Part shown: positions 1,172 through 42,433 of the stretch, one piece after another
How the letters are laid out: every line of letters begins with the position of its first letter
Numbering within the stretch: the stretch's first letter is position 1
The notes under the pieces: generated by a model
The model's database searches: none
What the model saw: the letters and a program-made list of their open reading frames with translations, nothing else
What the model was told of the DNA's origin: nothing
Translations under genes and position numbers: made by a program
From: an uncultured Alphaproteobacteria bacterium
Lineage (GTDB): Bacteria > Pseudomonadota > Alphaproteobacteria > RF32 > CAG-239
Length of the DNA: 64,000 nt
Assembly: GCA_944391395.1 (NCBI GenBank)
Contig: CALXTI010000006.1
Location: 2,503-66,502 of the forward strand
Direction of reading: 5' to 3'

Positions 1172-2143
1172 CTATGTAACCTCGGTAATGGCGCGCAGGT
1201 TTCCGTCGCGGTTAATTTGCACTACCCTGAGTTTATGGCGCATTTCTTCAATCGTTTTGGCACGATCGATCGTCGGATATGTATGCAAAATACGATCGGT
1301 GAAAGCTTGATATGCGGCTTCCGAACTTTCCGCATGGATGGTCGCCAGGCAGTTATCGTGACCGGAACCCATCAACTCCCATAAGGCACCGGCGTTGCTG
1401 GTCGAAATCTCACCGCCGATAATGGCGTCCGGCGTAAAACGGACGACCAAGTCAATGATTTTTGCATAATCCATTTCGTTCGTTTGCTCGGTACGGGACA
1501 ATACCAAATGCACACGATTTGGGTGCGGGACAATCAATTCCCGCGTATCTTCGATTGTTACAATACGTTTGTGAATGTCCAAAATTTTGAGCAGATTGTT
1601 CAAAAACGTCGTCTTACCGGTTGAAGTTGCACCACTGACCAGAATATGGTCGCCGCGTTTAATGCTCAACAGCAAGCGTTCATAAGGATCTTCCGGGTCT
1701 TTTATCTGTTTCAAAGGATTTATCTTATGCAGACCTTTGCCTTGAGCCAAGCCATAGTCTTCCAGACCGAACGCCACATCATCGCTATGAACGCGGATGG
1801 TCAAGGCAACACCGCCGGTTAAATCGCCTTCGTCATACATGACGTTACGCCCGGCAATCGCTGAAAAACGATGGTCGCCCGGTATAGTGGCGTAAACAAC
1901 CGGTGAACCGGATATCGGATCAAACGGCAGCTCATAAGTGTTGGCAACGATATAAAGCAAATCCGTTAAATATTCTTTGGTCAGTTTTTCATCTTTGTAC
2001 ATTACCCACGGATAAGCTCTTTTACCGCGCAAACGCAGCCAGATTTGCTCCGAACGATTGATTGCAACCTCTTCAATGTTTTCCTGATTATACCAATAAG
2101 CCAACGGGCGCAAAACAGATTCCAAAACCGTAAATGTACTCAT
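1172..2143 (-). CDS. virB11: T4SS ATPase VirB11
   Basis: Walker A GATSTGKTTFLNNLL lies in a VirB11/TrbB-type ATPase core. It is the last gene of the vir operon. The RBS is AAGGA. Confidence 0.9.
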   Translation of the reverse strand: MSTFTVLESVLRPLAYWYNQENIEEVAINRSEQIWLRLRGKRAYPWVMYKDEKLTKEYLTDLLYIVANTYELPFDPISGSPVVYATIPGDHRFSAIAGRNVMYDEGDLTGGVALTIRVHSDDVAFGLEDYGLAQGKGLHKINPLKQIKDPEDPYERLLLSIKRGDHILVSGATSTGKTTFLNNLLKILDIHKRIVTIEDTRELIVPHPNRVHLVLSRTEQTNEMDYAKIIDLVVRFTPDAIIGGEISTSNAGALWELMGSGHDNCLATIHAESSEAAYQAFTDRILHTYPTIDRAKTIEEMRHKLRVVQINRDGNLRAITEVT

Positions 2144-2158
2144 TATCCTTATCCTTTA

Positions 2159-5100
2159 TCAAAACAATTGCGCCGAAGTATTGTTGCTGCCGGCCGTTGA
2201 TGAAGGCGGCGGCGGGGTCGCGCCGGCAGATGTTACGGGCGGAATATTGACCGCGGACGATGGCTTTTTCTGACCGGATGTGGAAGTGTCGTCAATAAGC
2301 GGCATGGTCGCCCGGACATCTTCTGCATTTTCATCCAGATATACCACGCCGCTGGCACCCGGTGAGGTGCCGGTTGTGGTATTGCTGCTGCCGCCGGCAC
2401 TTCCACCGGCGCCACTATTGTCGCTACCGCCGCCTCCCGTTCCCGTCGGATTCCTATCATCAATAAATACCGTCGGTTTCTGTAAATCCTGCAAAGCTTC
2501 TTCTTCGCTGCGTTCAGGCGTTCTTACCCACAAATCTTCTTTCGGATAAATTATCAAGCGCGTACCTGCCGGAACATACGTTACCGCTTCAATATCGGTT
2601 TTATCCTGCAAAATTTGCTCAAACATTGTATCCATGTTATCCAAAAAGTTCTGACGGGCATCTTCGGCAGCTTCAGCGCGGGCGTTTTCAACTGTATTGC
2701 CGTCACTGTCGGTACTGGTTTCGCCGCTGGCGGCAACATAAGCGACAGCACTGCTTAAAAGGTTGGTAACCATCGGCAAAGTATACTTCTTGAGAAGTTG
2801 CTCGTCTAAATAACCCAAAGCTCCGGAACGTCCTTGCGCATCGCCGGTTTGTGCCGAAGAGAACTCAAAAGCCGAACCGTCCGGACGAATCAAACGTGTC
2901 CAGGTGATGGAAACTCTGACCGCACCGCCGCTCGTTCCTCCTCCGGAACCGCCGGAAGAAGTACCCATGACGCGGCTGCCGGCCGGAATAATAATGTTCC
3001 GCCCTTCTTCCGCATAAACATTCCGCTCAACAATTGCCGTTACCGGAACATCTCCGCCGCTGCTGCTGGACATGATTGTTCTGGCCAAAACCGCCGGAAT
3101 CGGCTTGTCTGCCAAAATCATCTCACTCATGTCAACTCGCCAAGACGATATCTGACGCGGCACACCTTCCCAATAATTCTGTCTGCCGTCGAAATCTTCT
3201 CTGCTGACATTCGTTGATAACTTGCCGACGGTGATTTCACCTCGGCGAGCGGCCTGAGCAGCCGCTAATGCCTGCGCACGAACCGGGTCATAACGTTCGC
3301 CCGGACCAAATCCGCCACCCGGGCCCAAGTTGGTCGGTGCCGTTCCGGTGCCATATGCACCTCCGGATCCAAACGTTCCGGCCGGAACAAACATCTGACC
3401 GGCTTTGACATTTTTGGCTTCTTCAATACCGATTAAATTTCCGTCATCGTCCATAATTAAGCCGTCCGGCATTCTTTTGCCTAACAAGTTGCCTAATTTA
3501 TCAATGACATCATTATTCATTAAGATATCACCCAAATAGTTGCCATCCGGAGTTAAGGCTATACCCACGGTCTTTAGTCCATATTCACCGACGTCTTCTT
3601 GCGGTGTCGGAACGGCATCAACCTTGATTTGTCCGGTCGGCGGCGTCGCCCATTCCGCAGGTTTAACCGGCTCCGGTTTATGCACGTTGTAATATTGCAG
3701 TTCGCGCGCCGTTGCCAATAAATTTGCATCATCATCTCTGATTTCGCCGCTGCCGGTGATATGGCCTATTGTTTCGCCTTTTGTATCAACCACTTCTCCG
3801 GTTAAGAGCAATTCACCGATAACTTGATTGTCTTTATCGCGAATAAAGTAATCCCGATTGCCGCGACCAATTAAAGCGTAATTCTTATCAACCAAGAAAC
3901 CTTTATCGGCTTTGCCTAAATTTCCGCCCGAAAAGTTGGCAACCCGTCCGTCTCTGGTTAAATAACCTATCGTATTGCCGTTTTCATCGTAAATATAAAA
4001 ATCATACAAAGCATAACCTATCGGTTTATTATCGGCCACAACCGTACCGTCATGGCGAACTTGTCCCAAGACATCGTTTTTATCGCTGACGACATTACCG
4101 TTTTCCAGAATTCGGCCTAAGAAATTATTGTCATTGTCAAAAGCCACTTTGTATTTGAACAAAAGTCCTAAAATTTCCCCTTCATTTGAAATCGCCGTAT
4201 TATCCGGTCTGACATAACCTATTGTCTCGCTTTTATCATTAATTAATCTGCCATTTAAATCACTGCGGCCGATAATCATGTTTTCAAAATTAATGACCGG
4301 CAACGGCTGCGCAAGTCCGCCAATAAAATGATTATCGGCATTATAGAACCTGCCGTCGCGACGGATGCAACCCAAATTTTCCTGAGCGTAATTAAGCACG
4401 CGGCCGGATATGTTGATTGTGCCGAGAGATTTTCCGTCAAAGTCCGTCACATTACCTGTTTCGACGCCGAAACCAACCACATTGCCGACCTCTGAAATCG
4501 CTTGTCCGTTGGTTAAAATCTTGCCTAAAATAACATCACGGCTGTTACGGATTTCACCTTTGGTGCCGATAACGCCTAAGAATGAACACTCATCGTTTAC
4601 AACGCCTTTAAAATCAATAACTTTACCAATAACGGAATTATTCGTATCTGCCACTGTTTCGGCATCAAGCATAGCTCCTATTTTGTTTCCGGAATAATCA
4701 TAAACATCTCCTTTGAAATCGGCATAGCCTAGCATGTTGCCATTGATGCCGACGGCAAGCAACGCTTTTCCGGCCGTACCGATAACCGGCATTTTGTTGT
4801 CATTTATATCTGCCGAACTTGAAACAAGAGCATATTCCGGCAAAATCTTAGCAATCGGCTCGTGTTTTTCATTCAACAACAAATTATTTTCCGCGGCGTA
4901 ACCTATGTTTGCACCTTCGTTTGTTTTGAAAAACAGCGGATTAATACTCGCGGCGACAACATTGTTTTCCGAATCCACAACCGCTCCGAACTGAGTCAGT
5001 TTATAATTCCGCTCTGCCGGGATGCCTTGCAAATCGCCGTTCAATCCGACATAACCTTCCACCGCGCCGTTTTCTTGATACAGCGCTTCCAAGCCAACCG

Positions 5101-6439
5101 TGTGGCCAATCAACAAATTATCCGCCGAGTAAACATATCCGAACGGCGAAATTTTGGATTTAATACCTTTGTCGGAAAAATCGGAACCTATGCCGCTTAA
5201 ACCTATCAAATTGTTGCTGTTGTCAAAAACCAGCAGATTATCCATGCCGGCGCCCAAAAGTCGACCTATGTTGTCATACATCAGTCTGCCCTTGGCGTAT
5301 CCCAAAGGCGTTCCCGTTGTAGATATAACCGTGCCGTTACGCAAAGATTGCGCAATCAGATTTCCCACATAATCAAACACCGGACCGGATTTAATAATCT
5401 GACCGATAATTTCGCCATCGGCATTCCAAACAAAACCTTTGGCACCGACGGTTCCGACCGTTTCACGCGCTTTGGCAATTTTGCCGCCCGGCATTAAACG
5501 TCCGAGGTATTTCCCTTGTAAATCCGTTGCCGTGGCTGCTATATCCAAGCTAAAACCTATAACCGAACCTTGTTCGTCAACCACTTTATCATCGGCACGC
5601 AAACGGGCAACAGTCTTTCCTTCATTAATAACTTCTCCGTTGTATGCTATCAGTCCCAAATAATTTCCGTAATTATCAAATGCGTAACCGTTAGTTACCA
5701 TTTTACCTATAACACGGTCGTTCTCGTCATAAACATATCCGTTGGCATGCACAAAACCTATGGCTTGGGAGGCAAAATCCGTAACGCGTCCGCCCGGCGT
5801 TACACTGCCGATAAAATTTCCTTCCGGCGAAATAACCATTTTTGCCGAAATCAACTTTCCATCCAAACCAAACCCGTTTCCGGTATTGCGGTAAGCGTAT
5901 CCTAGCGGTGAGATAAAGCCTATGTTTTGCCCCTCCATGCTAATGTATGATCCGTCGCCGGTCAAACGTCCGACCGTTTTGCCGGCATCGTCGTAGACCA
6001 AGCCCGGATATAATACGGAGCCGAGGATATTATATGAATCGTCAACCACCAAAGCGTTGGGCAATACTTTACCGACAATCTTTCCGGAAGGAAGTCGCAC
6101 GGAACCATCGTTGTTCACCCTTCCCAACAATTTGTTATCATTGCCGACCGCTATCCCTTGAGGAATAACGCCGCCGATAAGCTCTCCTTTTGCATTCACG
6201 ATAAAGCTGTCTGCAGTTACATTGCCGATGATGGCGTTATCAAAGCTGACAACCGTACCATCAGGGATAACCTTACCAATCAAATCACCGTTAAAATCTA
6301 TGGCCGTAATTTCCTGCGCATACACCGGTTTAACCGCCAATAAAATTGCGGCAAGGCTTATGTTAAACCATAACGCTATTTTTCCGACTTTGCCAAACAC
6401 CTTAATTCCTCCGATTTTGCGCAACATCCTGTAAAGCAT
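2159..6439 (-). CDS. virB10: Giant VirB10/TrbI-family protein (1426 aa). It has a signal peptide or TM anchor, about 900 aa of degenerate ~17-aa tandem repeats, a C-terminal VirB10/TrbI barrel domain, and a Gly/Ser/Pro-rich tail.
   Basis: The C-terminal region (VPVTAIVERNVYAEEGRNIIIPAGSRVMGT...VRVSITWTRLIRPDGSAFEF...LLSSAV) is characteristic of the TrbI/VirB10 family. The N-terminus MLRKIGGIKVFGKVGKIALWFNISLAAILLAVKPVYAQ looks like a signal peptide. An alternative GTG start at 6400 is preceded by GGAGGA and lies 1 nt after the stop of the upstream gene. That start would remove the 38-nt overlap. Confidence 0.8.
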   Translation of the reverse strand: MLYRMLRKIGGIKVFGKVGKIALWFNISLAAILLAVKPVYAQEITAIDFNGDLIGKVIPDGTVVSFDNAIIGNVTADSFIVNAKGELIGGVIPQGIAVGNDNKLLGRVNNDGSVRLPSGKIVGKVLPNALVVDDSYNILGSVLYPGLVYDDAGKTVGRLTGDGSYISMEGQNIGFISPLGYAYRNTGNGFGLDGKLISAKMVISPEGNFIGSVTPGGRVTDFASQAIGFVHANGYVYDENDRVIGKMVTNGYAFDNYGNYLGLIAYNGEVINEGKTVARLRADDKVVDEQGSVIGFSLDIAATATDLQGKYLGRLMPGGKIAKARETVGTVGAKGFVWNADGEIIGQIIKSGPVFDYVGNLIAQSLRNGTVISTTGTPLGYAKGRLMYDNIGRLLGAGMDNLLVFDNSNNLIGLSGIGSDFSDKGIKSKISPFGYVYSADNLLIGHTVGLEALYQENGAVEGYVGLNGDLQGIPAERNYKLTQFGAVVDSENNVVAASINPLFFKTNEGANIGYAAENNLLLNEKHEPIAKILPEYALVSSSADINDNKMPVIGTAGKALLAVGINGNMLGYADFKGDVYDYSGNKIGAMLDAETVADTNNSVIGKVIDFKGVVNDECSFLGVIGTKGEIRNSRDVILGKILTNGQAISEVGNVVGFGVETGNVTDFDGKSLGTINISGRVLNYAQENLGCIRRDGRFYNADNHFIGGLAQPLPVINFENMIIGRSDLNGRLINDKSETIGYVRPDNTAISNEGEILGLLFKYKVAFDNDNNFLGRILENGNVVSDKNDVLGQVRHDGTVVADNKPIGYALYDFYIYDENGNTIGYLTRDGRVANFSGGNLGKADKGFLVDKNYALIGRGNRDYFIRDKDNQVIGELLLTGEVVDTKGETIGHITGSGEIRDDDANLLATARELQYYNVHKPEPVKPAEWATPPTGQIKVDAVPTPQEDVGEYGLKTVGIALTPDGNYLGDILMNNDVIDKLGNLLGKRMPDGLIMDDDGNLIGIEEAKNVKAGQMFVPAGTFGSGGAYGTGTAPTNLGPGGGFGPGERYDPVRAQALAAAQAARRGEITVGKLSTNVSREDFDGRQNYWEGVPRQISSWRVDMSEMILADKPIPAVLARTIMSSSSGGDVPVTAIVERNVYAEEGRNIIIPAGSRVMGTSSGGSGGGTSGGAVRVSITWTRLIRPDGSAFEFSSAQTGDAQGRSGALGYLDEQLLKKYTLPMVTNLLSSAVAYVAASGETSTDSDGNTVENARAEAAEDARQNFLDNMDTMFEQILQDKTDIEAVTYVPAGTRLIIYPKEDLWVRTPERSEEEALQDLQKPTVFIDDRNPTGTGGGGSDNSGAGGSAGGSSNTTTGTSPGASGVVYLDENAEDVRATMPLIDDTSTSGQKKPSSAVNIPPVTSAGATPPPPSSTAGSNNTSAQLF

Positions 6440-9400
6440 AACCTGCTACATTTTTATCCAAATTAACAAATGAACCGTTGTTTTTCAAATATCCGATATT
6501 TTCTCCGGAAGAACCGGATACTTTCCCGCCCGCTTCCAAACGTCCGACGTAATCACCGTTATCCGAAAGAACGGCGGTGCCTATTTTGTATATCGTCCCG
6601 AAAACATTGTTTTGATTATCTATCGCCAAACCGCCTGACAGCACTTTGCCGATAACGACATTGCCGCTGTTCCTGATTGTTCCGTCAAAGCCGACATAAC
6701 CGGCCACTTGGTCTTGATTGTTAATCACAATATCTCCCGAAACCGTTTCTCCGATTAGACGGCCTTCCGAGTTGACCGCTTTGCCGTCGGAATACACTTT
6801 GCCGATAACGACATTGTTGGTATTGATTACGGAACCGTCCGGCATAACCGTTCCTATTATCTTGCCGCCAAAATCTATCACCACACCTCTTCTTAACACG
6901 CTCAAGCCTTTATCCGTCGAGCCACCGGGCAAAACGGCCGTCATTACTTTGCCCGTTAAATCGGCAACATCGCCGATGGCATTCGTATAACCGCTGTAAT
7001 TGCCAAACATGTCTATCATTAATGCCATCGGAACAACTTCTCCCAGGACATTTTTTTCAGCATCAAGAATTAAGCCGTCTCCGCTTTCGTATCCGGTTGT
7101 CTGACCTGATGCGCTCACCACGTTTCCGTCGGCTTTGACATATCCAAGATACGAACCATCGTAACCGATGGCTGCCCCGGGTACCACAACGCCGCCGGCA
7201 TACAAACCTTTGTCATTCAGCCACCTGCCTTTGGCATCTATGCGGCCAAGATATTCGCCAAAACGCGTCAGCACTCTGCCGTCCGGATTGACGAACCCGA
7301 CTTTTTGACCGGACGTGTCAACAACGGCTCCGGTCGGAAGAACTTTCCCGACATTGCCGGAATAAAAACTCAAACCGTCTCCGTATATTTTATCAACAAC
7401 AACGCCTTTCCCGTCATAAACGTTGCCGTCGGCAAAAAGTCTTCCCAAAATATCACCGTTGGAATTAACGACAATGTTTCTTTCAGGAAATGCAACCCCG
7501 ATAATTTTATTGTTGCCGTTAACAATGTATTTATGCAGCAGCAAACGGGCGTCAGGATATTGTTTGAGTATCAAAGAGCCGTCATTTTCGAAAGTGTTTA
7601 AATATGTTCCGTTGAGGTCAAAAGCATAAAACTTATCAATCAAATTTCCCTGATAGGCGCCATCTTCATTAAAGACTTCGCCGTCTTCATTGCTGCAACC
7701 GATGGGCAGCATGGCTCCCGACACGACCGTTCCTCCCGGCGTCATGCGACCGATTGTTTGTCCCTCTGCGTTGACGGCTGTTTTATATTGTGCAACTTTG
7801 CCGATAATGTCGCCGTTGTCATTCAAAACCGTTCCGTCAGGATTAACACAACCGACATATCGCTTATTGTCCGTTTGCACGATGCCTTGCTCGTTTGCCG
7901 TTCCCAAATAATTACACTGACGGTCAAAAACTCTCCCTACCGGTACGACGTTGCCTAAGAACTGACCGTTTACATTATAAACACCGCCGTCCGGATAAAT
8001 GCTATAAGGCATTTCTTGCCCGTTCTTTGTAATCGTACCGTCTTGGTTGAGCTGGCCGACATTGCTGCAGCCCCAGCCGACAATCGTTCCGCCTCTTAAA
8101 CCGCGGGCAATTATTTTTGACCCATTCGCATCACGAATTAACGTATTGGGCAATATGCGCCCGAAGACCTGACCTTTTTCATTAACAATCTCGCCGGTTG
8201 ACGAAACAGCGCCCAAAATTGTTCCCGCAGGTGTTACCGGTATCAATTCCATCCGGACGACAGAACCGATTTTTACGGCTTGATTGCTGATGATGTTGCC
8301 GTCTTTATCTACATGGCCGATGACTTCGCCGTTTCTGCCGATGACTTCGCCTTTGCTGTTAATGTAACCGATAACGTTGCCGTTTTCGTCAAGCGCCAAA
8401 TTGACATATTCACCGGCACGACCGATAATATTGCCATTTTTATCAACGACCGTACCATCTTCCAACATTCGGCCGATAACATTGCCGTTGGCATCCAAAA
8501 TTGTTCCGTCTTCCAAAATCTGACCGATTTTGTTACCGTTAAAATCAATAATATTGCCGTTTTCATCAATGTAGCCTATCGGATTGCCGTTCTCGTCATA
8601 ATACAAACGTCTTGAAGGACCCATTTTGCCGATTTGTTCGCCGCTTAATTTGTAAGCATCACCATTTTCATCAACATAGCCGACAACATTGCCGTTCTCG
8701 TCGACAATAGAATTATCCGGCATTACCACGCCTATCGGATTGCCGTTTTCATCAACGGCGGTTTGGCCGGAACGACTGACATAACCGATAACGTTGCCGT
8801 TCATGTCGACGACCTCGCCGTTTTCATTCATACGGCCGATAACGTTGCCTTCCATATCCACAACCGTTCCGTCTTCCAAAACCCGGCCGATGATATTGCC
8901 GTTTTCGTCATAAACATAGCCGGCATCAACCCCTCTGCCAATGATGTTTCCCACGCTGTCGACAATGGTGCCGTCGGCATTTAAATGTCCTATCGGGTTG
9001 CCGTTAAAATCAACCGCCTGTCCATCGGCCGTGACATAGCCGATAACATTACCGTTTTCGTCATAAATCAGTTTTTTATTGCCGGCAACGCCGATGATAT
9101 TGCCGTTTTCATCAACGATGAGACCGTCTTCGTTTACGCGACCGATGATATTGCCGTTTTCGTCCCGAACGTAGCCGTCTTCATCAATATAACCTATAAC
9201 TTCGCCGTTCGGTCCGTACGCAATCCGCGTTTTGGTCTCATCGGCCGTCACTTTGCCAATGACGTTGCCATCTTTGTCAAGCACTTGATTGTTGGTATTG
9301 ATGATGCCTAATTCGTTACCATTCAAGTCTACCGCACGGCCGTCCGGCGTAATATAACCGATAATATTGCCGTTTTCGTCCCGGATGACCATGCCTTCGC

Positions 9401-10028
9401 CCAAATCAGACCCCGGCGCCGTGGCACAGAAATTGCAATCTTCTTTGCTGATGGCATTGCCGTCAACCGGAATCTTTTGCGCTTTGGCGTTTTGAGCGCT
9501 GACATTTGTTTCGTGCCAAGAAACAATAAAATTGTTTTGGACGTTCCCGGCAACAACCGGCGCCCAGTTCATGGTAATGTTACAAGTCTGATTGCCGCGA
9601 AGTTCCGCGCTTGTGCAACCATCGCTGTATGTGAAACCGTCAAAGGGCGGTTCGGCCAGTTTTACCGAAACAATGCGAATGGCGGCTTTGCCGTTGGTGC
9701 CTATCGTAAGCACGTTTTTGGCTTCCGTTCCCAAAACAACCTGTCCCATATTGACCGGGTTCGGCGTTGTGGTTATCGGCAATTCGCCTTCTTCAACGTC
9801 TTCAAACTCAATATTGTCCATTAACGGATTGACATTATTTCCCAAATTTAGAGCGTCGTCATCTTCGGTAAAAACAGGCTCTTCATATTCCGTCGTCGGC
9901 GCTCCGCTGGAAAACAAAAGCAGAAGTCCAAACAAAAACACGACAAAGGAAGTGATACCAACGATTAAAATAATACGATTGGTTTTACGAACATACCTTT
10001 CCGAATGGGTTAAGACTTCTTTGCTCAT
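6402..10028 (-). CDS. Membrane-anchored tandem-repeat protein (1208 aa). It has an N-terminal cytoplasmic segment, one TM helix, and then dozens of 17-aa repeats with consensus DENGNIIGxVxxDGxVV that degenerate toward the C-terminus.
   Basis: The TM segment is IILIVGITSFVVFLFGLLLLF. Counting residues gives a repeat period of 17 aa, which equals 51 nt. The gene is located between virB9 and virB10. Mirror-image antisense ORFs in the track (DNIAVF...) are a side effect of the nucleotide periodicity. Confidence 0.7.
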   Translation of the reverse strand: MSKEVLTHSERYVRKTNRIILIVGITSFVVFLFGLLLLFSSGAPTTEYEEPVFTEDDDALNLGNNVNPLMDNIEFEDVEEGELPITTTPNPVNMGQVVLGTEAKNVLTIGTNGKAAIRIVSVKLAEPPFDGFTYSDGCTSAELRGNQTCNITMNWAPVVAGNVQNNFIVSWHETNVSAQNAKAQKIPVDGNAISKEDCNFCATAPGSDLGEGMVIRDENGNIIGYITPDGRAVDLNGNELGIINTNNQVLDKDGNVIGKVTADETKTRIAYGPNGEVIGYIDEDGYVRDENGNIIGRVNEDGLIVDENGNIIGVAGNKKLIYDENGNVIGYVTADGQAVDFNGNPIGHLNADGTIVDSVGNIIGRGVDAGYVYDENGNIIGRVLEDGTVVDMEGNVIGRMNENGEVVDMNGNVIGYVSRSGQTAVDENGNPIGVVMPDNSIVDENGNVVGYVDENGDAYKLSGEQIGKMGPSRRLYYDENGNPIGYIDENGNIIDFNGNKIGQILEDGTILDANGNVIGRMLEDGTVVDKNGNIIGRAGEYVNLALDENGNVIGYINSKGEVIGRNGEVIGHVDKDGNIISNQAVKIGSVVRMELIPVTPAGTILGAVSSTGEIVNEKGQVFGRILPNTLIRDANGSKIIARGLRGGTIVGWGCSNVGQLNQDGTITKNGQEMPYSIYPDGGVYNVNGQFLGNVVPVGRVFDRQCNYLGTANEQGIVQTDNKRYVGCVNPDGTVLNDNGDIIGKVAQYKTAVNAEGQTIGRMTPGGTVVSGAMLPIGCSNEDGEVFNEDGAYQGNLIDKFYAFDLNGTYLNTFENDGSLILKQYPDARLLLHKYIVNGNNKIIGVAFPERNIVVNSNGDILGRLFADGNVYDGKGVVVDKIYGDGLSFYSGNVGKVLPTGAVVDTSGQKVGFVNPDGRVLTRFGEYLGRIDAKGRWLNDKGLYAGGVVVPGAAIGYDGSYLGYVKADGNVVSASGQTTGYESGDGLILDAEKNVLGEVVPMALMIDMFGNYSGYTNAIGDVADLTGKVMTAVLPGGSTDKGLSVLRRGVVIDFGGKIIGTVMPDGSVINTNNVVIGKVYSDGKAVNSEGRLIGETVSGDIVINNQDQVAGYVGFDGTIRNSGNVVIGKVLSGGLAIDNQNNVFGTIYKIGTAVLSDNGDYVGRLEAGGKVSGSSGENIGYLKNNGSFVNLDKNVAGYALQDVAQNRRN
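8250..9330 (-). repeat. Most regular core of the 51-nt in-frame tandem coding repeat array. A degenerate array extends from about 2900 to 9350 across both giant genes.
   Basis: Near-identical 20-25-nt cores recur every 51 nt. Examples are ccgataacgttgccgttttcgtc and ccgatgatattgccgttttc. Confidence 0.7.
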
Positions 10029-10044: not shown

Positions 10045-11664
10045 TTATTGCACCCTTACAACGCTGCAGAAAACACCGTTGCGGCCAAGCTGGCTGCAAA
10101 TATTGTCGCCGGCATCAATCGATGAAACCGGACCTATCCTTAAATGGAACAGTTCCTTTCCCTGTCCGTCAGCCGGAGCGTCAACCGAGTAAAACGGTTG
10201 ATACGAGCTTAAAACTGAAGAATATTTCCTTGAAAGCTCGCTCCACAGATTTTCCAAATTGCTGACATCGGCATCCGTTCCGAGTTCAACCGAGATGCTG
10301 GCGGCATCGCTCCCTTCAAAGCCACTGCCATAGCGATATTTTGCAAAAACATCTTCATCATCGCCGGACATTGTTTTACTTTGATGCGGCAGCCGATGCA
10401 TTTTGCTGTAATCTATCCCATCATCGGCATCGCCGGCATATTTCGGCGACAACAATTCGCCGTCCGGGCCGACCCGCATTACGTTTTCGCCGACGACCTC
10501 ACCTTCCGTACCTTGACCTATGTTTCTTCCGTTTTGGGTTGAACCATTGTCATATCCCGAATTACGGGAAGAACGATTGGCAGCTGTCGCCGAAGAAGCT
10601 GCCCCTCCCGGAATTGCCGGCGGAACATCCCAATCATTCGTTTCGGCGTATGTAACATTATCCAATCCTTCGGCATCGTCACGACGCATTTTCAGGCAAA
10701 CAATACGCTTGCCGTTGCGCAACACCATGTCGCCGACACCTTCGACAATAATCAAACGATTGTTCGGCCCTTTCGTTCTGAAACCGACCGGCGTTTCAAC
10801 CCGTTCGACAATCAAGGTAACAATCGGACGTTGTATCATATTCAACGCCTTTTCACCCAAATCAATATAAGTGAAAATGTCATCATGCCAGACGCGTTCC
10901 GGCGCAATCACAACGTCATCCGGATTTGGCACATAAATTTCAATATCAAAGCGAAATTGAGACGGATCAAGCGGAATGCTTTTTATCCAATCTTCTTTTT
11001 GGAAACGTTTGGTAAAAGTTGAATCAACGGAATGATTATTGTTTCCGCGGTAAGAACTGGCATTAACGTGTCCGCCGCCGGAGCCGCTGCCAAGGCTTCC
11101 GACGGTGCTACCATTTTTTCCCGAATCAACCACTTCTATGTCAATAATCGAGTTAGTCAAACGTTCTGTATTCACCCCTTCGCTGCGAGCATAGAAAACA
11201 TATTTGTTGCCGGAACGGCCAAAAACAATGATGTTGGTGTCCACACCGACCATCGCGCCCTGCTTAGGATACAAAAGCAAAGTGCTGGGACCGGAAATTC
11301 TGCCGTCAAAGGTTTTGCTGTCGCCGATGTAGACGTCTTCAACCAATTCCCATTCCGGAAAATTAACCAACGTTATCATGCCTTCACGCAATCTTATCGG
11401 CAAGACCAAATCCGGCGTCCAGTAATAACGCGAATACGCCGGCTTGCTTTGCCCTTCGCCCAAATTTTGCAAAGGATCAAGCCATGCGCTTTGCATCATG
11501 CCCAGAGAGCTGATGCCTGTATAGCCCATGTTCATCGGCTGATACATTCCCTGGCTTTGATCCGCGTTTTGATTCAAGCTGTCTATTGTTGCCTGCCCGT
11601 TAGCCGCAAGCGGGATTGCGGCAAAAGCAAGAGCTGAAAAAATTTTTGTCAGATAACGTTTCAT
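10045..11664 (-). CDS. virB9: VirB9/TrbG-family protein with a C-terminal extension (539 aa). The extension is glycine/serine-rich and ends in a SPOR-like segment.
   Basis: It has a signal peptide MKRYLTKIFSALAFAAIPLAANGQ. Both VirB9 N- and C-domains are present (for example DDVVIAPERVWHDDIFTYIDLG). The C-terminus ELFHLRIGPVSSIDAGDNICSQLGRNGVFCSVVRV resembles a SPOR peptidoglycan-binding repeat. Confidence 0.75.
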   Translation of the reverse strand: MKRYLTKIFSALAFAAIPLAANGQATIDSLNQNADQSQGMYQPMNMGYTGISSLGMMQSAWLDPLQNLGEGQSKPAYSRYYWTPDLVLPIRLREGMITLVNFPEWELVEDVYIGDSKTFDGRISGPSTLLLYPKQGAMVGVDTNIIVFGRSGNKYVFYARSEGVNTERLTNSIIDIEVVDSGKNGSTVGSLGSGSGGGHVNASSYRGNNNHSVDSTFTKRFQKEDWIKSIPLDPSQFRFDIEIYVPNPDDVVIAPERVWHDDIFTYIDLGEKALNMIQRPIVTLIVERVETPVGFRTKGPNNRLIIVEGVGDMVLRNGKRIVCLKMRRDDAEGLDNVTYAETNDWDVPPAIPGGAASSATAANRSSRNSGYDNGSTQNGRNIGQGTEGEVVGENVMRVGPDGELLSPKYAGDADDGIDYSKMHRLPHQSKTMSGDDEDVFAKYRYGSGFEGSDAASISVELGTDADVSNLENLWSELSRKYSSVLSSYQPFYSVDAPADGQGKELFHLRIGPVSSIDAGDNICSQLGRNGVFCSVVRVQ

Positions 11665-11684: not shown

Positions 11685-12431
11685 TTATTCCGCCTCATTG
11701 TGCGAAAGCGAATACCTGGTTACGGTAAACCCGACCGGATTGTTCAAGCGTTCGCCATACTTAACAACTTTTTTTCGATACATAATCCTTAAAGAGGCTG
11801 TCCAGTAGTTGACTTCCGGAGCCGCAGAATCCGGATACATATCCCGGGTTTCATACTCCACTTGCCACAAACCTCTGCCCAATTCATTGACGGTCATAAT
11901 CCGCACCATGCGATTTAATCCCCTGGTTCTGATAATATCCAGAGCCTGATTGGCCGTGCGGTCGATAAACGCCTGATAAACCGTCGGCGTTGACATTTCC
12001 TGCAACGGTCCGCCCGGCATCCAGCGAGATTCCATCTCCTGAACGTCATTGGTGAAAGCGCTTCTTAAAAGCACATACTCACGTACAAAAACTTCCGTAA
12101 TGGCTTTTTGATCTTCCATATTGGAAAGCGGTACAATATCATACACCTGTTCTTCCTTGTTTTCAAAAGTCAAAAGAAAAGGCTCTATCCGATACAAGGG
12201 AAGAAGTTGGGCAATCGCCAAAATTAAAACAAAATTGCAACACAAACTGATGGCCACGACCACGGCAAATGCACGAGCCGTCCATAAATATCTTTTTTCA
12301 CTTGCGTTGACGACAATCTCGTCTTCTTCACGACGACGCGGCTGAGGCCGACGAACAACTTTCCGCGGCATGGCGTTTCCGTTGCCGAGCAAACGTTGTT
12401 CCGTGTTGTTTATGCCTAAACGATCCGCCAT
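11685..12431 (-). CDS. virB8: VirB8 (bitopic, NTF2-like periplasmic domain)
   Basis: It has an N-terminal TM helix. The REYVLLRSAFTND motif and the C-terminal NPVGFTVTRYS signature are shared with the paralog at 12774-13532. Confidence 0.8.
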   Translation of the reverse strand: MADRLGINNTEQRLLGNGNAMPRKVVRRPQPRRREEDEIVVNASEKRYLWTARAFAVVVAISLCCNFVLILAIAQLLPLYRIEPFLLTFENKEEQVYDIVPLSNMEDQKAITEVFVREYVLLRSAFTNDVQEMESRWMPGGPLQEMSTPTVYQAFIDRTANQALDIIRTRGLNRMVRIMTVNELGRGLWQVEYETRDMYPDSAAPEVNYWTASLRIMYRKKVVKYGERLNNPVGFTVTRYSLSHNEAE

Positions 12432-12438
12432 AATACAC

Positions 12439-12627
12439 CTATATCGTTGCTACAAACCAATCCGGAAGTGTTTTTGGTAATTCTATTTCAATGCATGCGC
12501 ATGGCGAAAGTTTCAGTTCGTTCACATCTTTACCTATGCCGACCGGTTCCGGCTCATAATACGAACCAAACAGCCCGCATGCCGATAAAATCAGAATAGC
12601 AATCAACAAAACAACTTTTTTATACAT
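12439..12627 (-). CDS. virB7: Small lipoprotein, a VirB7-like candidate (62 aa)
   Basis: The signal peptide has a lipobox (LLIAILILSAC-G). Its small size and position between two virB8 genes and upstream of virB9 match the rvh-type order. Confidence 0.5.
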   Translation of the reverse strand: MYKKVVLLIAILILSACGLFGSYYEPEPVGIGKDVNELKLSPCACIEIELPKTLPDWFVATI

Positions 12628-12773: not shown

Positions 12774-13532
12774 TTAAAGAATTTCAACTTCCGTTTGAGA
12801 ATATCTTGTCACGGTAAAGCCTAAAGGATTCATCAAGCGTTTTGACATGAACAGGCGCTCAGGCACGAAAAATGCCGTAACAGAAGCCGTCCAATACTTT
12901 GTAACAAGAACCAAACTTCCGGTTGCATCGTTACGAACATCGGGCGACAGGTCATAAGTGCGAAAATCAACTTTCCATACCGGACTTTTTTCGCCGCCGA
13001 CTTTGCCGATGGATATAATTTCCACATCACGCACGATTTTGTCTCGAAGCAATCTGTTGAGTTCTTGTTCACGACCTTTGTCGAACTCGGCAAAAACTTG
13101 CGAAGACGACATATATGCGACCATGCCGCCGCCAAACCACCGGGTTTGCATTTCTCGTTCATCGCTTAGCACCGTGTTGCGCAAAATAACATACTGACGG
13201 ATAAAGTTTTCCATCATCTGCCTTGAAGACGCCATATCGGGTGCAATCGGCTCATAACGTACCATTGTATCGGAGCTGTCTTGCCGGATAATCAAAAACG
13301 GTTCCACCATCACTTCCGGAGCTAGGCGAAACAACACCAATGAGGCACTGGCAAAAAAGCCCAAAGACAGAATGGCAAACAAAATCACCAACCGCGACAA
13401 CCAGCAATAATAGCTCTCTTTAGCGCCTTTTAATTCAGGGCTTTGATCCGTCACATACTCAAAATGCGTTTGCGGTGCATTGGCATCGGTAATTGCCAGT
13501 GTTTTATTGCCATTTCCCAGTTGTTCTACCAT
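12774..13532 (-). CDS. virB8: VirB8 paralog
   Basis: It has a TM helix, the IRQYVILRNTVLSDEREMQTRW motif and the C-terminal NPLGFTVTRYS signature. It is a paralog of the gene at 11685-12431. Confidence 0.8.
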   Translation of the reverse strand: MVEQLGNGNKTLAITDANAPQTHFEYVTDQSPELKGAKESYYCWLSRLVILFAILSLGFFASASLVLFRLAPEVMVEPFLIIRQDSSDTMVRYEPIAPDMASSRQMMENFIRQYVILRNTVLSDEREMQTRWFGGGMVAYMSSSQVFAEFDKGREQELNRLLRDKIVRDVEIISIGKVGGEKSPVWKVDFRTYDLSPDVRNDATGSLVLVTKYWTASVTAFFVPERLFMSKRLMNPLGFTVTRYSQTEVEIL

Positions 13533-13543
13533 TTTTTGTCCTG

Positions 13544-16500
13544 TTATTCATAAACTATGCAATACGGTTCTTCAAAATTATTTAAATTATCTTCAAACAC
13601 GTCTTGCGCTTCTTTATCATATTCATCGCGCGCGGCATTGTCGGCCTGCTTGCTTTTAATTTTTTCCGCAAGCTCGCTGTCGCCTGCCATGTTGTCGTTT
13701 AGCTGCACCAGCTCATCGCTGTCCATCTGCAACGCACCGGCAATATTATCGACTTTGGTTAATTTTTCTTCCAAAACATCGTTGAGCGGCTGAATCGATT
13801 GTATAATGTTTACAGATTCTTCAACATAGTCGTTTTTGGCAGAATCAAGCGCCGACATAATTTCATTATAAGTATCATCGTCCGAAAGGTCAAAGTCTTC
13901 TGCCGGTTTATATTCGACATCCTCAAGTTGTTCCTTGATTTTCTGCCGAGTGTTTTCTACTTTGACATCCAGCTGATCCAAATTGTCCTGATAGAGCATC
14001 TCCTGTTCGATAAAATCCAAGAAATTGCCAAATTGATTACGCGTCAACAATTCTTTTTTATAAATATCCTCCAACGCCAAATCTTCTTCGCTCACATCAC
14101 CGGCCGTTTCCAGATTTTCGTAAAATTCCATAATCTTTTGTACACGGTCGCTAAAAGTCAGGCCATCTTTATAAGCCAAGACGGTCGCCAGTTCACTCGT
14201 CAATTCTTTTTCCGGAACTTTGTTTAAAGTGCCGCTCACGCTGCCGTCAACAAGATGAACCTGAACAAAGTAACTCACTTCACCTGTTAGCTCATTTACA
14301 TGACGCGTGATGCTGATTGAATTGATGTCGGGACAAACCCGGTTGATATTGCCGGTAGCGCCGGAGACATGATACTGACCGTTGCGGATTGTAACATCAT
14401 ATTTGCCGGTTGTGCAGGGATATCCCGGTTTGATGGCATCAAGCGCGGCCGAATTATGCGATAAGATTTTTTCAATATCGACATCTCTTTCCACAAAACC
14501 TTTCCGACCTAAAATCCGCTGCCAAATTCCCGGTAAATCTTGCCCCATGTCAAGGAAATCTTCTCTTGTCGTCATCCAGGTGTCTGATTTGATAATATCG
14601 GCAAAATCGACCGTGTCAAAATGTATGATTTCACGCAGCGGCGCCGTCGGCGTCGTGGCAATAATTTCGGGCGCCATAAAGTCTCGCGGCTTGGGCGGCA
14701 ACCCGACGAAATATTCATCATCGCTTTTATAACACGCATCACCCGGACAAATTTCGGCAAACGCGGCTTGCGTGATTATTTCTTCGGCAATGCCGTTAAT
14801 CGCCGATGGACTGCCCAAAAGCGACAATAACGTTCCGGTTATGGAAATATCAATTTCGGGACGCTGCATATTATTCAACATACGTTTATGAATAGCGACA
14901 ATTTCGTTGTGATAATCGCTTTCGAAACGATTGTTTTCCATGTTATCAATAGCTTCGGCCGCATTTCTGATTTCTGCCAACATCTGACTGCGGACGCGTT
15001 CCGCCGCATTATCCGAAACATTAATCATAGCGCTCAGAATCGAGCGGGTAACACTGTTTGCCCCCGTGGTCGTTCTTAAAATGCCGGAAAGAAAATCGCT
15101 CTCGCCAAGCGTTTGAGACGAAACATCGTTTTGAAGAGCAAGCAAAGCATTTTTTACCGTGGCAAGGCTTTGTGCTTCCAAGCTTGACGCATCAGCGGCA
15201 AAATCGTTTTTGGCGCGGGTGATTTCTTCTTCTTTATCCGCCAATTCGATTTTAAGTTCATCAATGCTTTCACGCTGTGTTTCTATGCCCGGCAAAACGC
15301 TTTCCGCCGTTTGTTCAGCTTCGGCAATCGCGGTATCGGATTCAGCCATTGATGATTCCGCCGTCGCTTCAAAATTGCTCATGGAACCCGGAGATTTTGC
15401 CTTACGTTCCTGCGAAATTTCAATGACGACTTTTTGCCCTTCTATGTTTCCTTCGGCGGAGGCCTTATCTTCCATAGCCGTATTATAGGTTGTCTTCAAA
15501 TCATTTAAGGCTATGTTTTCGTTGTCAAGATTTTCATATATGGAAGTTTTCTGGTTGTTCAACGAAGCCATCTTGGCGTTAAAAGAGTTGCGCAAGCCGT
15601 CGATTGCTTTGTCAACATTATCCTGAACCTCCTCAATATTTGCAAACGCCTGAGAAATTGACGCATTTTCTTTAAGTGCGTTTTCCAGTTTTTCCAAAAC
15701 CCGGCTGTTATATTCTTTGATGTCTGAAAAACTGAGCGTTTCGCTTATCATGCCTTTGGAAGGAATCATGTCGTTGATTTTTTGCGCAAGTTTGATAACA
15801 GAGGGACGCAAATCCATCGCTTTGACATAAATTTCCATGTTTTTATATTTTTCATTCAAATACTGATCATAAACAAGCTTTACATCATCCCACATGGGGT
15901 ATTCGGCTTTTACCGCCCCCCATTCCGACGTGCCGGCGACCATATCTTTGCCAAGTTGTTTGGCGGCTTCGGCGCCGATTTGCCAGGAAATCAAGCCCTG
16001 TTCCCGAATAGTTGCTTCCGTTTTCGGCTCATCACTCGGACGCAGCAAAGAACTGTCCGCCGTGCCTGATGACGCCTCAGCGCCGTACTGCTCGTTTAAA
16101 GAGCTTAATTGCGAAACATCCGCCTCTACGCTTTCATCGGTCATGCTGGCGGCAAAGTCCTCCATTCCGAGATCAAGCGTTTTTTCTGCTTTGGCGGCTT
16201 TGTACGCCGAAATCAGCCATCCGGAAAAGCCCTCGCGGCTTGAATAATCGGTTACATCATAGCTGCTGCAAATTTTAGATTTGTTGTCTGCGCATAAAAC
16301 ATCTCCCGGCAACAGATTTTTCAATGTTTCCGAGGTTAATTGGCGGTCCGTATCACATGAAATCGTGCGGCCGTTCCTTTTGCAGCCGCGGCCATACCAC
16401 ATTTCCACCGGGTCCGTATAATAGTTGCCGACATAATTTACGTTGCAGCTTTCGGATTTCAGCAGCTGTTCCACGGCTTTTTCGTGCAAGGCTTTCATTT

Positions 16501-17728
16501 TGTTGTATTCAATAAAAATCTTGCGATATTCCGGCAACTGCTGTTTCAAGTTGTGCACTTTCAAGGCTTTTTGCAAATATTGATACGCGTTGTTGGCAAG
16601 CATGGACGATTGAAACTGCTCGGCCGTTCCGGCAAAAGGCGATTTAACGTTATAAGATTTGGGCTGGACGCTTTCCAGATTTGGGTCCGGTTGTTCGGCC
16701 GCGGCATTGTTGCCGGTCAAAACCATTCCGCCAAAAGTTTCAACTTTGGCAGAAGCGTTTTCGCCTGAGGCTTTGGCGGTTGCCGCGGATGTCGAGGCCG
16801 CAGTGGTCGCGGCGGTTGCGGCAGTCGGAGAAGCCATGGCGGTCGCAGCGGTTGTGGCGGTTTTGGCCGAAAACATCTGAGCAAAAGCCATCGGGCGGGT
16901 TTGGGAATATATCAAGACATCGTTAGAACTTACTTTTTCGCCGTCGGCGGTTTCTTCTTCGGTTTCCTCAATCGGCTCAATTCCCGCCAACACGGCTTGA
17001 GCCACTCCATACTGTGCTTTCAAAGCCATTAATTCTTCGGTGATTTTGAGCATGGAATCATATATGACGTTCAGTTTGTAGTAGTTGCTCCAGACGCCCA
17101 ATTCTTCTTCGGAGGAAGATGCGCCGGCGCAGCTGCTGGCGTTGGAACTCTCACCTTTAACATAACATGTGCTTAACTCGTCATATTCGGCTTTCAAGGC
17201 GGCCATTTTTTCTTCCAAATCGCGGACGGTGATGTAGGCTTCTATCATGGCGTCGTTGCCGAATTCCACGGCTTTGTCGCGATAAGCCTGTTTGACGGCA
17301 CGTTCGTTTTCGGGATATTTTTCCAGAATATCCGCCGGATAAGTCAAAAACAAGGTATGAAAAGCCTCAACGATTGATTCTTCGTTCGTGATGTCGGCGA
17401 TTTTACATTTTTCAATGGTGCGGACGCTGGCCAAATTCGGCTTGCCCTCTTCTTTGCCGAACAAGGTTTCCTGCAATTTGAGTTTGACCTTGTCGGCAAA
17501 ACTTTTGAGTTTGCCGATTGTTTCGCTTTGGAGTTTTTGCAGATTATCTTGCACGGTCAAAGCCTGCGCACTGTATGCCTCCACGGTTTCCGCAGCGTCG
17601 GTTAAAAAGTCGATGGTCGGACTAAGTGGCGTCGGCGGAACGGGAGATTGCGCTTTGGCAACATCAATCCTCAACAGCGCGGCAAAGCCTGCCAGCAAAA
17701 TCCATATGTACAAATTATGTTTTTTCAT
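13544..17728 (-). CDS. Secreted 1394-aa protein. It is coiled-coil-rich with Ala/Thr-rich low-complexity tracts and has no recognisable catalytic domain. It sits where virB6 would normally be in the operon.
   Basis: It has a signal peptide MKKHNLYIWILLAGFAALLRIDVAKAQ and no internal TM helices. It shares an RPMAFAQM(F/A)S(A/F)KT motif with the 622-aa protein. Confidence 0.6.
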   Translation of the reverse strand: MKKHNLYIWILLAGFAALLRIDVAKAQSPVPPTPLSPTIDFLTDAAETVEAYSAQALTVQDNLQKLQSETIGKLKSFADKVKLKLQETLFGKEEGKPNLASVRTIEKCKIADITNEESIVEAFHTLFLTYPADILEKYPENERAVKQAYRDKAVEFGNDAMIEAYITVRDLEEKMAALKAEYDELSTCYVKGESSNASSCAGASSSEEELGVWSNYYKLNVIYDSMLKITEELMALKAQYGVAQAVLAGIEPIEETEEETADGEKVSSNDVLIYSQTRPMAFAQMFSAKTATTAATAMASPTAATAATTAASTSAATAKASGENASAKVETFGGMVLTGNNAAAEQPDPNLESVQPKSYNVKSPFAGTAEQFQSSMLANNAYQYLQKALKVHNLKQQLPEYRKIFIEYNKMKALHEKAVEQLLKSESCNVNYVGNYYTDPVEMWYGRGCKRNGRTISCDTDRQLTSETLKNLLPGDVLCADNKSKICSSYDVTDYSSREGFSGWLISAYKAAKAEKTLDLGMEDFAASMTDESVEADVSQLSSLNEQYGAEASSGTADSSLLRPSDEPKTEATIREQGLISWQIGAEAAKQLGKDMVAGTSEWGAVKAEYPMWDDVKLVYDQYLNEKYKNMEIYVKAMDLRPSVIKLAQKINDMIPSKGMISETLSFSDIKEYNSRVLEKLENALKENASISQAFANIEEVQDNVDKAIDGLRNSFNAKMASLNNQKTSIYENLDNENIALNDLKTTYNTAMEDKASAEGNIEGQKVVIEISQERKAKSPGSMSNFEATAESSMAESDTAIAEAEQTAESVLPGIETQRESIDELKIELADKEEEITRAKNDFAADASSLEAQSLATVKNALLALQNDVSSQTLGESDFLSGILRTTTGANSVTRSILSAMINVSDNAAERVRSQMLAEIRNAAEAIDNMENNRFESDYHNEIVAIHKRMLNNMQRPEIDISITGTLLSLLGSPSAINGIAEEIITQAAFAEICPGDACYKSDDEYFVGLPPKPRDFMAPEIIATTPTAPLREIIHFDTVDFADIIKSDTWMTTREDFLDMGQDLPGIWQRILGRKGFVERDVDIEKILSHNSAALDAIKPGYPCTTGKYDVTIRNGQYHVSGATGNINRVCPDINSISITRHVNELTGEVSYFVQVHLVDGSVSGTLNKVPEKELTSELATVLAYKDGLTFSDRVQKIMEFYENLETAGDVSEEDLALEDIYKKELLTRNQFGNFLDFIEQEMLYQDNLDQLDVKVENTRQKIKEQLEDVEYKPAEDFDLSDDDTYNEIMSALDSAKNDYVEESVNIIQSIQPLNDVLEEKLTKVDNIAGALQMDSDELVQLNDNMAGDSELAEKIKSKQADNAARDEYDKEAQDVFEDNLNNFEEPYCIVYE

Positions 17729-17738
17729 CGCCTTCTCC

Positions 17739-28778: not shown

Positions 28779-28859
28779 TAAGTGTTTTGTTAAGCTTGAT
28801 TATTTAATTTGCAACCTATATGATTGGAAAATATTATGTGTGACAAAGGGGATTTGAAC

Positions 28860-31242: not shown

Positions 31243-31257
31243 CGGAAAGGAAAAACC

Positions 31258-34075: not shown

Positions 34076-34090
34076 CAGGGTTGTCGAAAA

Positions 34091-35755: not shown

Positions 35756-35768
35756 GAGTTTGTAAATT

Positions 35769-42428: not shown

Positions 42429-42433
42429 GGCGT

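Follow-up and report, generated by a model that had tools for sequence, protein, structure and literature searches.

An uncultured member of the Alphaproteobacteria (order RF32, CAG-239; assembly GCA_944391395.1) carries on contig CALXTI010000006.1 a chromosomal type IV secretion system (T4SS) operon in which the place of virB10 is taken by two adjacent genes. The stretch analysed here, called the window throughout, comprises 64,000 nucleotides (nt) of this contig (positions 2,503 to 66,502 of the forward strand); all coordinates refer to the window, and both genes lie on its minus strand. The upstream gene, virB10-N (6402-10028, stop codon included), was identified by open reading frame (ORF) calling and runs from an ATG at 10028-10026 to a TAA at 6404-6402, encoding 1208 amino acids (aa), while the downstream gene, virB10-C (2159-6400), encodes 1413 aa. 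We propose, with a probability of roughly 80%, that the two genes are the halves of a VirB10 which was first enlarged and then split by an ancient and since fixed gene fission, virB10-N being the N-terminal half. A previous interpretation of the DNA, made without database searches and referred to below as the sequence-only reading, had suggested that the pair represents one ancestral VirB10 cut in two, and this suggestion was borne out both by profile homology of the N-terminal module of VirB10-N and by uninterrupted ORFs in a sister lineage.

The first 200 aa of VirB10-N form a module that can be traced to single-chain VirB10 proteins. It opens with a cytoplasmic tail (aa 1-17) and a single transmembrane helix reaching to about aa 40 (9909-10028, minus strand). 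AlphaFold2 (AF2) predicted a helix at aa 8-40, with block-mean predicted local distance difference test (pLDDT) values of 82-94 across aa 11-40, and the tail motif LTHSExYVKKTNRIIL was kept in all VirB10-N orthologues. A disordered acidic linker leads to a periplasmic ASH/PapD-like, immunoglobulin (Ig)-type beta-sandwich with conserved Cys residues (aa 85-193; 9450-9776, minus strand), modelled by AF2 with a pLDDT of >90. In a Foldseek search of the PDB this sandwich matched the ASH/PapD-like domains of CEP192, HYDIN and OCRL (E ~1e-7), and weak matches to the Pfam ASH and NCBIfam choice-of-anchor D families were obtained as well. VirB10 proteins of about 700 aa from metagenome-assembled genomes (MAGs) labelled as Rickettsiales, which contain no beta-flower repeats and are 23-31% identical to the window protein in the C-terminal domain, carry on the same chain an N-terminus with the tail motif KKSxSDIKTRRTNIIL, a transmembrane helix and a Cys-containing beta domain. 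The motif and helix of VirB10-N align with those of the ~700-aa proteins, and when a profile of the N-terminal module (N-module, 200 aa) was compared by hhalign with the first ~220 aa of nine such proteins, 173 collinear columns were aligned with a probability of 98.5% (E 2.8e-15; pairwise BLASTP gave E 0.006). This profile match indicates that the 1208-aa protein begins with the N-terminal module of VirB10. The same N-module profile, when run against protein representatives, also matched many unrelated giant proteins with 4-35 tandem ASH/choice-of-anchor-D-like domains, which places the Ig-type domain of VirB10-N in a widespread class of bacterial surface-protein domains.

Uninterrupted counterparts of the whole gene pair were found in a related lineage. 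A single long ORF was suggested by the UBA genome GCA_002437805.1 and by a human-gut scaffold, both of which contain N gaps. Four gap-free contigs, each with a single ORF of 2292-2462 aa, came up when metagenomes were scanned for a segment unique to this ORF. The encoded protein starts with MNEELLSSSDRYLKKSN and a transmembrane helix, contains beta-flower repeats (Bflower_2, E 1e-124) and a TrbI domain, and ends in ...PVPELF; its gene is flanked by two VirB8 genes and a VirB9-SPOR gene upstream and by a VirB11 gene downstream. Residues 1-1196 of VirB10-N align end to end with aa 8-1272 of a giant VirB10 of this single-chain kind (E 7e-165). Eight more single-chain proteins, of 1498-2363 aa, came from a profile search against 1.84 billion representatives, all with the N-module at positions 1 to ~205, Bflower repeats and a TrbI domain near the C-terminus. 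The single-chain beta-flower proteins (L092:5852-12730, GCA_002437805.1 and P0223-P0297) thus share with the split pair the N-module, the repeat family, the TrbI domain and the ...LF terminus, as well as the operon order virB8, small ORF, virB8, virB9-SPOR, virB10, virB11, and their C-terminal domain is 39-46% identical to that of the split clade. They differ in being uninterrupted over 1498-2462 aa, with no internal stop, Shine-Dalgarno (SD) sequence, start or signal peptide. No description of these single-chain proteins was found in the literature.

Among the loci inspected, four (L007, L008, L089 and L090) are scaffolds with N runs inside the arrays, and a fifth, L091, is cut at a contig end and uninformative. 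In L090 (GCA_002437805.1, DJRO01000005.1) a 1489-aa antisense ORF at 4321-8790 is annotated as a gene opposite the giant VirB10, and most database entries of both genes end at contig ends or scaffold gaps within the repeat arrays. Such truncated and antisense entries show that MAG annotation of the VirB10 locus is systematically unreliable, and they serve as a warning that virB10-N and virB10-C are fragmented or mis-called in such genomes.

The downstream protein begins with a predicted signal peptide and a beta-flower array; a Pro-rich linker leads on to the TrbI/VirB10 barrel domain, and the last residues of its low-complexity tail are AQLF. The C-terminal beta-barrel, formed by aa ~1095-1290 when counted from the GTG (2531-3118, minus strand), matched PF03743 with E 3.7e-31 and 108.9 bits against a cut-off of 35, and phmmer searches of the PDB recovered ComB10 (2bhv, 4e-19), TrwE (7o3j, 2e-7), VirB10 of Xanthomonas (6gyb), CagY and TraF. 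As the scores for the NCBIfam VirB10 and ComB10 equivalogs remained below their cut-offs, VirB10-C is to be seen as a divergent member of the VirB10/TrbI family. At its extreme C-terminus (2159-2170, minus strand) a terminal (P/A)xLF was present in 72 of the 74 loci with a readable end (PQLF 43, PALF 13, AQLF 10, PELF 5, IELF 1), the PELF loci being those of the single-chain lineage (L089, L092-L095); this terminus could be a sorting or assembly signal.

The sequence-only reading had proposed that the upstream gene supplies the membrane anchor which VirB10-C lacks. This holds insofar as the tail and transmembrane helix reside on VirB10-N; VirB10-C, however, has a hydrophobic presequence of its own and would be devoid of a canonical anchor only if this presequence is cleaved. 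The barrel-bearing product does not show the bitopic topology of VirB10 and possesses instead a 28-aa presequence with an AxA site, predicted to be a Sec signal peptide for signal peptidase I (aa 1-28; 6317-6400, minus strand; MFGKVGKIALWFNISLAAILLAVKPVYA followed by QE after the predicted cleavage point). Throughout the 83 split loci described below, the presequence is 22-35 aa long and poorly conserved in sequence, with a hydrophobic core (median maximum Kyte-Doolittle score 2.6) and 1-7 K/R near the N-terminus; the -1 residue is Ala in 80 loci and Ser in three, and the -3 residue is Ala in 55 and Val in 19, the rest being small or aliphatic (A/V/L/T/G/S). It is followed by the conserved (Q/E/I/A/V)EITAIDFNGDLIGKVIP, where (Q/E/I/A/V)EITAIDFNG constitutes the conserved mature start (QEITAIDFNG in the window), and the N-terminal peptide predicted for mature VirB10-C is QEITAIDFNGDLIGK. 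The call was made by our own heuristic, i.e. the statistics of the -3/-1 rule over the 83 loci, and not by SignalP; by these statistics the presequence fits a Sec signal peptide that would be cleaved by signal peptidase I.

One genome per species was scanned with an alignment of the VirB10 N-terminus; 152 genomes matched, of which the best 80 were retrieved. Together with the metagenome loci L007 and L008 these gave 82 related loci, or 83 including the window. The best 80 genomes are all gut, rumen or faecal MAGs of Alphaproteobacteria and bear labels such as 'uncultured Azospirillum sp.' or Candidatus Scatocola. All 82 related loci have the two-ORF layout, with upstream orthologues of 1039-1839 codons, invariably ending in EVA(K/Q/M)N(R/Q)RN*, and downstream orthologues of 1411-2106 codons. 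When protein databases were queried with the N-module, with the C-terminal domain of VirB10 and with the end of VirB10-N, the hits were almost only fragments at contig ends, which are insufficient by themselves to decide between one and two ORFs; the last of these searches, using the C-terminal 260 aa of VirB10-N, gave 13 homologues, and nine of ten sequences inspected end in ...NRRN.

A neighbour-joining (NJ) tree of the C-terminal domain, rooted with the ~700-aa proteins as outgroup, recovered the split clade and the single-chain clade as monophyletic groups, each in 50 of 50 bootstraps. A single chain is the state of the outgroup as well as of the sister clade, so that the most parsimonious account has the array expand first and one fission follow along the stem leading to the split clade. 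The converse would be a fusion: a separate gene for a protein with transmembrane helix, Ig domain and beta-flower repeats lay between virB9 and virB10, and the sister lineage joined the two, losing the stop and the signal peptide. We consider this unlikely. The N-module is already part of the TrbI chain in the more distant ~700-aa VirB10 proteins without beta-flower repeats, so that a fusion would require a prior loss of the N-module from canonical VirB10, and the single-chain forms are diverse (at least eight clusters at 50% identity) whereas the split proteins form one monophyletic clade.

Several points nevertheless weigh against a fission, and some of them lend weight to a fusion. Gene fusion is in general more frequent than fission in evolution, and the polarity adopted here depends on the outgroup comparison and on a branching order taken from a simple NJ tree of 27 sequences. 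When 150-aa windows were slid along the proteins and compared by BLAST with a single-chain protein, each window matched the array where it is most regular, and collinearity was limited to the two termini, so that neither positional homology within the arrays nor the exact ancestral cut site could be mapped. The summed halves (2621 aa) are longer than the single-chain relatives, which calls for extra repeat expansion or a partial duplication. The scan that collected the related loci used a split-type N-terminus as its pattern, so that the uniform layout is conditional on it and shows a widespread and stable split rather than a universal one. If the presequence were not cleaved, as the heuristics predict it to be, VirB10-C would itself be anchored in the inner membrane. 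Finally, all evidence comes from metagenomes of uncultured organisms, in which expression and interaction of the two halves are predicted.

The excess length could also be read as the trace of a partial tandem duplication, in which the 5' part of a giant virB10 was copied and the downstream copy lost the tail and Ig domain but kept a remodelled hydrophobic segment. Across the clade the combined halves amount to ~2450-3500 aa, against 1498-2462 aa for the single chains, and both halves hold long arrays of the same repeat type. The two proteins, however, are only ~25% identical to one another in many alternative registers, as expected of background similarity between repeats, and no collinear block of high identity was seen; moreover, the presequence of VirB10-C bears no trace of the KKTNRIIL motif or of the Ig domain, and a duplication needs more events than a simple fission. 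We thus regard it as quite improbable.

The junction between the halves is compact. The TAA of virB10-N (6402-6404, minus strand), placed after an ...NRRN ending that is kept in the 83 loci, is separated by a single base (6401) from the GTG start of virB10-C (6398-6400, minus strand), and the SD sequence GGAGGA (6407-6412, minus strand) lies inside the Arg-Arg-Asn codons closing virB10-N, 6 nt before the GTG; the longest ORF would instead start at an ATG (6439-6437) and overlap virB10-N by 38 nt. The positions given by the sequence-only reading were confirmed on the sequence, as was its choice of the GTG: virB10-C starts 0-4 nt past the upstream stop in 80 of the 82 related loci (1 nt in the window), with two others overlapping by 1 or 4 nt and one having a 19-nt gap (overall range -4 to +19 nt), and the ATG at -38 is confined to the closest relatives. 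The conserved 0-4 nt start, together with the restricted occurrence of the ATG, identifies the GTG at 6400-6398 as the real start. The last codons of virB10-N, AAyCGGAGGAAy, contain GGAGGA, the two Arg codons being almost always CGG AGG, and in 80 of 83 loci the GGAGGA of these terminal ...NRRN* codons lies at most 20 nt from the virB10-C start. The last seven residues of VirB10-N (C-terminal peptide ...NVAGYALQDVAQNR) were predicted by AF2 to be disordered, and the invariance of the NRRN codons within this tail is consistent with a constraint at the RNA level as a ribosome-binding site. The stop codon itself varies (TAA 46, TAG 19 and TGA 18 of 83), and virB10-C starts with TTG in 50, GTG in 28 and ATG in five loci; weak starts of the former two kinds fit a dependence on coupling to the upstream gene. 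No terminator-like site was detected at the junction or at either end of the two genes. With its near-abutting stop and start and an SD sequence within the upstream ORF, the junction has the conserved architecture of translational coupling that had been anticipated, and coupled translation of the two genes would be predicted from it.

An SD-like GGAGGA next to a stop codon also resembles the frameshift-stimulating elements of prfB and dnaX, and about ten species have both ORFs in one frame, with only the stop in between. It could hence be argued that programmed frameshifting or stop readthrough produces a fused VirB10 alongside or instead of two products. The relative frame of the two ORFs is, however, 0, +1 or +2 depending on the species, a variation that rules out any recoding signal kept among them as well as a recent frameshift in common, and, as the spacer varies too, no single recoding event could be conserved. 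The slippery-site search suggested by the sequence-only reading found no X_XXY_YYZ heptamer before the stop, and a fused product would carry in its interior a signal peptide whose AxA cleavage site is conserved. Recoding is in our view very unlikely.

Evidence against an artefact also came from the strain level. The exact 1208-aa protein was found on 22 metagenome contigs, and in six independent metagenome assemblies, derived from different samples of two projects, the junction was base-for-base identical to that of the window and the gene lengths were the same, although 19-26 single-nucleotide polymorphisms (SNPs) distinguished these assemblies from the window over the 7870-nt gene pair; the GTG at 6400-6398 was chosen by the gene caller in all six. 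Gene length was thus constant among seven strains and varied between species only. Tandem Repeats Finder (TRF) reported one 43-nt hit in the 7.9 kb, i.e. essentially no tandem repeats at the DNA level, so that the protein repeats must be old and degenerate and an assembly collapse is unlikely. Because the restriction of SNPs to synonymous sites in virB10-N among the six assemblies (L001-L006) is partly a product of the look-up by exact protein, ratios of non-synonymous to synonymous substitution rates (dN/dS) between species were used instead; they amounted to 0.03-0.11 for virB10-N and 0.07-0.13 for virB10-C, rough values as dS is saturated, and by this comparison of sequences both halves are under purifying selection. 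That repeat arrays break many assemblies, leaving most database homologues truncated at contig ends or gapped, might have spoken for a sequencing or assembly frameshift, or a recent pseudogenizing mutation of a single virB10, as the sequence-only reading had offered for an alternative, but the six identical junctions with their strain-level differences, the same layout in 82 of 82 loci in all three relative frames, the conserved signal peptide after the start, the low dN/dS in both genes and the lack of DNA-level repeats make this explanation practically negligible. That reading had also held that one uninterrupted ORF in relatives, combined with a single-base indel in this genome, would point to a pseudogene or an error. 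Distant relatives do carry one ORF, but no indel separates the window genome from them; the split is old and fixed.

The repeats that make up most of both halves belong to the beta-flower families. In VirB10-N the array spans aa ~215-1198 (6435-9386, minus strand), being regular over aa ~215-590 and degenerate beyond, and was matched by Bflower_2 (PF21785; E 2.9e-77 in 12 stretches, 256 bits), DUF3659 (1.4e-37) and Bflower (2.9e-35, 122 bits); the array of VirB10-C scored 184.5 bits with Bflower_2 (E 5e-55) and 58.4 bits with Bflower, the cut-offs of these two families being 38 and 25 bits, respectively. An AF2 model of aa 949-1208 of VirB10-N consisted of short beta-hairpins throughout, with a mean pLDDT of 75 and no helix, and a Foldseek search of the PDB with this repeat model gave no confident match (TM-scores ≤0.21).

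From these data we envisage the following course. The ancestor would have been a single bitopic VirB10 with a cytoplasmic tail, a transmembrane helix, a periplasmic ASH-like Ig domain, a linker and a C-terminal TrbI barrel forming the outer-membrane core. An array of beta-flower hairpins would then have expanded in the periplasmic linker, giving rise to single chains of ~1500-2460 aa which persist in the sister lineage. The cut inside the array would have occurred along the stem leading to the window's clade: a stop arose after ...NRRN, the closing NRRN codons came to double as the ribosome-binding site GGAGGA, a start, mostly TTG or GTG, was established 0-4 nt further on, and a Sec signal peptide was gained by the newly formed downstream gene. 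Ribosomes terminating on virB10-N may re-initiate at the weak virB10-C start by means of the embedded SD sequence, which would provide roughly equimolar halves. VirB10-N would stay anchored in the inner membrane, its conserved cytoplasmic tail accessible to the T4SS ATPases, while VirB10-C would be exported by Sec and most likely cleaved at an Ala/Gln bond, with its TrbI domain joining VirB9 and VirB7 in the outer-membrane core. Once in the periplasm, the halves would re-link without a covalent bond, with the beta-flower arrays presumably making the contact, so as to restore the connection between inner and outer membrane; the arrays may also form a periplasmic structure of enlarged size. The sequences show the gene structure, its conservation, the homology of both halves to single-chain VirB10 and purifying selection; that translation is coupled, that the signal peptide is cleaved, that the halves reassociate and that the repeats have any role in this are steps that we infer. 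That VirB10 functions in this manner, as an inner-membrane VirB10-N and a cleaved, Sec-exported VirB10-C rejoined non-covalently via arrays of ~1000 aa, in a clade matching at least 152 species-level genomes, is a working picture to which we would give slightly less than even odds. As to the partners of the arrays, there are only hints, namely the SPOR domain carried by the neighbouring VirB9 and the annotations that connect some beta-flower proteins with lipids or the cell wall (PMC10584680).

Canonical VirB10 and its relatives TrwE (R388), TraF (pKM101) and ComB10 have in common with the split pair the TrbI barrel domain, a Pro-rich segment before the barrel and the position between virB9 and virB11. 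Antenna helices spanning the outer membrane and a 14- to 16-fold core complex with VirB7 and VirB9 are also typical of the VirB10/TrbI family. In canonical VirB10 a single bitopic polypeptide of ~380-450 aa holds both ends, whereas here anchor and barrel are on separate polypeptides, the inner-membrane N-terminal anchor on VirB10-N and the barrel on a half with a predicted cleavable signal peptide, and ~1800 aa of beta-flower repeats are inserted. CagY of the Helicobacter pylori Cag T4SS, part of an 'expanded' T4SS, is likewise a giant VirB10 orthologue (1927 aa) with a homologous C-terminal domain, and a very large stretch of repeats separates its membrane anchor from its VirB10 domain. Unlike the split pair, CagY is a single chain, and its repeats are unrelated in sequence, no match being obtained outside the C-terminal domain. 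The repeat region in the middle of CagY consists of direct repeats at the DNA level which recombine during infection to tune secretion (PMC5954226, PMC3585145). Recombinogenic repeats of this type were not found here, as judged by the single TRF hit and by the gene lengths invariant in seven strains. DotG of the Legionella Dot/Icm system is repeat-expanded too, with repeats of the pentapeptide type and not of the beta-flower type. In contrast to the split pair, DotG, too, is a single chain, and its repeats are unrelated to those found here. In this VirB10 homologue the outer-membrane channel is formed by the C-terminal domain (PMC12857230). That article contains no mention of a split VirB10 form, and neither a split VirB10 nor a T4SS with beta-flower repeats turned up in full-text literature searches. 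To CagY and DotG the split pair adds another, independent VirB10 inflated by repeats, and these repeats have a different fold.

The beta-flower fold (PF21784/PF21785, Pfam clan CL0395) was named in 2023, with its function not known (Durairaj et al. 2023, PMC10584680), and originally comes from small stand-alone or lipoprotein domains of ~100 aa (PMC10584680). It is a closed barrel of beta-hairpins with 4-, 5- or 6-fold arrangement, in many cases around a C-terminal helix. The arrays described here agree with these families in their strong Pfam matches and in the [DNEQ]xxG motif at the hairpin tips, but differ in that tens of hairpins are strung into arrays of >1000 aa inside a T4SS core subunit, which places the fold in a defined molecular machine. 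If the proposed arrangement is correct, the beta-flower fold would gain its first role, as a periplasmic connector or scaffold, and continuity of the VirB10 chain would be dispensable. Among T4SS subunits, VirB10 alone is believed to form a covalent bridge between the inner and the outer membrane; a lineage in which it is cut and a sister lineage in which it is intact, both under purifying selection, would amount to a natural experiment on the part played by covalent continuity in channel gating and energy sensing. These bacteria are common, uncultured inhabitants of the human and animal gut, and the T4SS on their chromosome may be of importance to how they interact with the host or with other microbes.

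The operon adjoins engB, yidC, rnpA and rpmH, and its order on the minus strand is a VirB2-like gene (borderline), VirB4, four ORFs without a family match, VirB8, a 62-aa VirB7-like lipoprotein gene, VirB8, VirB9/CagX-SPOR, virB10-N, virB10-C and VirB11. The pair lies between virB9 and virB11, as expected of the VirB10/TrbI family, with the same order in the related loci. Upstream of the pair, a VirB9/CagX homologue (10045-11664, minus strand; CagX 1.2e-10) bears a C-terminal SPOR domain (2.4e-4), a peptidoglycan-binding domain that occurs in the same fusion in the single-chain lineage (L092:4311-5855), and downstream a VirB11-type ATPase (1172-2143, minus strand; T2SSE 4.5e-22) occupies the same position throughout the related loci. 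The first and second VirB8 ORFs (12774-13532 and 11685-12431, respectively) flank the 62-aa ORF (12439-12627, minus strand), which has a lipoprotein signal and the lipobox LSAC (MYKKVVLLIAILILSAC...) and is probably the equivalent of VirB7. This arrangement of virB8, virB7-like gene, virB8, virB9, virB10 and virB11 corresponds to an rvh (Rickettsiales vir homologue)-like layout; other rvh hallmarks (multiple VirB6 paralogues, a second virB9 and virD4) were not found or not recognisable in the window, and we do not claim rvh membership.

Of the remaining operon genes, a 387-aa ORF (24506-25669, minus strand) with a collagen-like low-complexity tail gave a borderline N-terminal match to the TrbC/VirB2 pilin family (27.1 bits, cut-off 27.9) and may encode an unusually long pilin. 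The four ORFs at 13544-21577 (minus strand; 1394, 436, 237 and 622 aa) had no Pfam or NCBIfam match, candidates for VirB6, VirB5 and VirB3 were not recognisable among the T4SS operon ORFs, no VirD4 coupling protein was recognised among the larger window ORFs scanned, and an Rfam scan of the window gave no match. Close to the operon, a cluster of the type IVb pilus or type II secretion system (T2SS)-like kind (28824-36887, plus strand) comprises a TcpQ-like protein, a secretin, a PilO-like protein, a T2SSE ATPase and a T2SSF platform protein. Further on, an AddA/AddB-type helicase-nuclease pair with UvrD helicase and PD-(D/E)XK domains (39054-45376, minus strand) provides a housekeeping context which confirms the chromosomal location.

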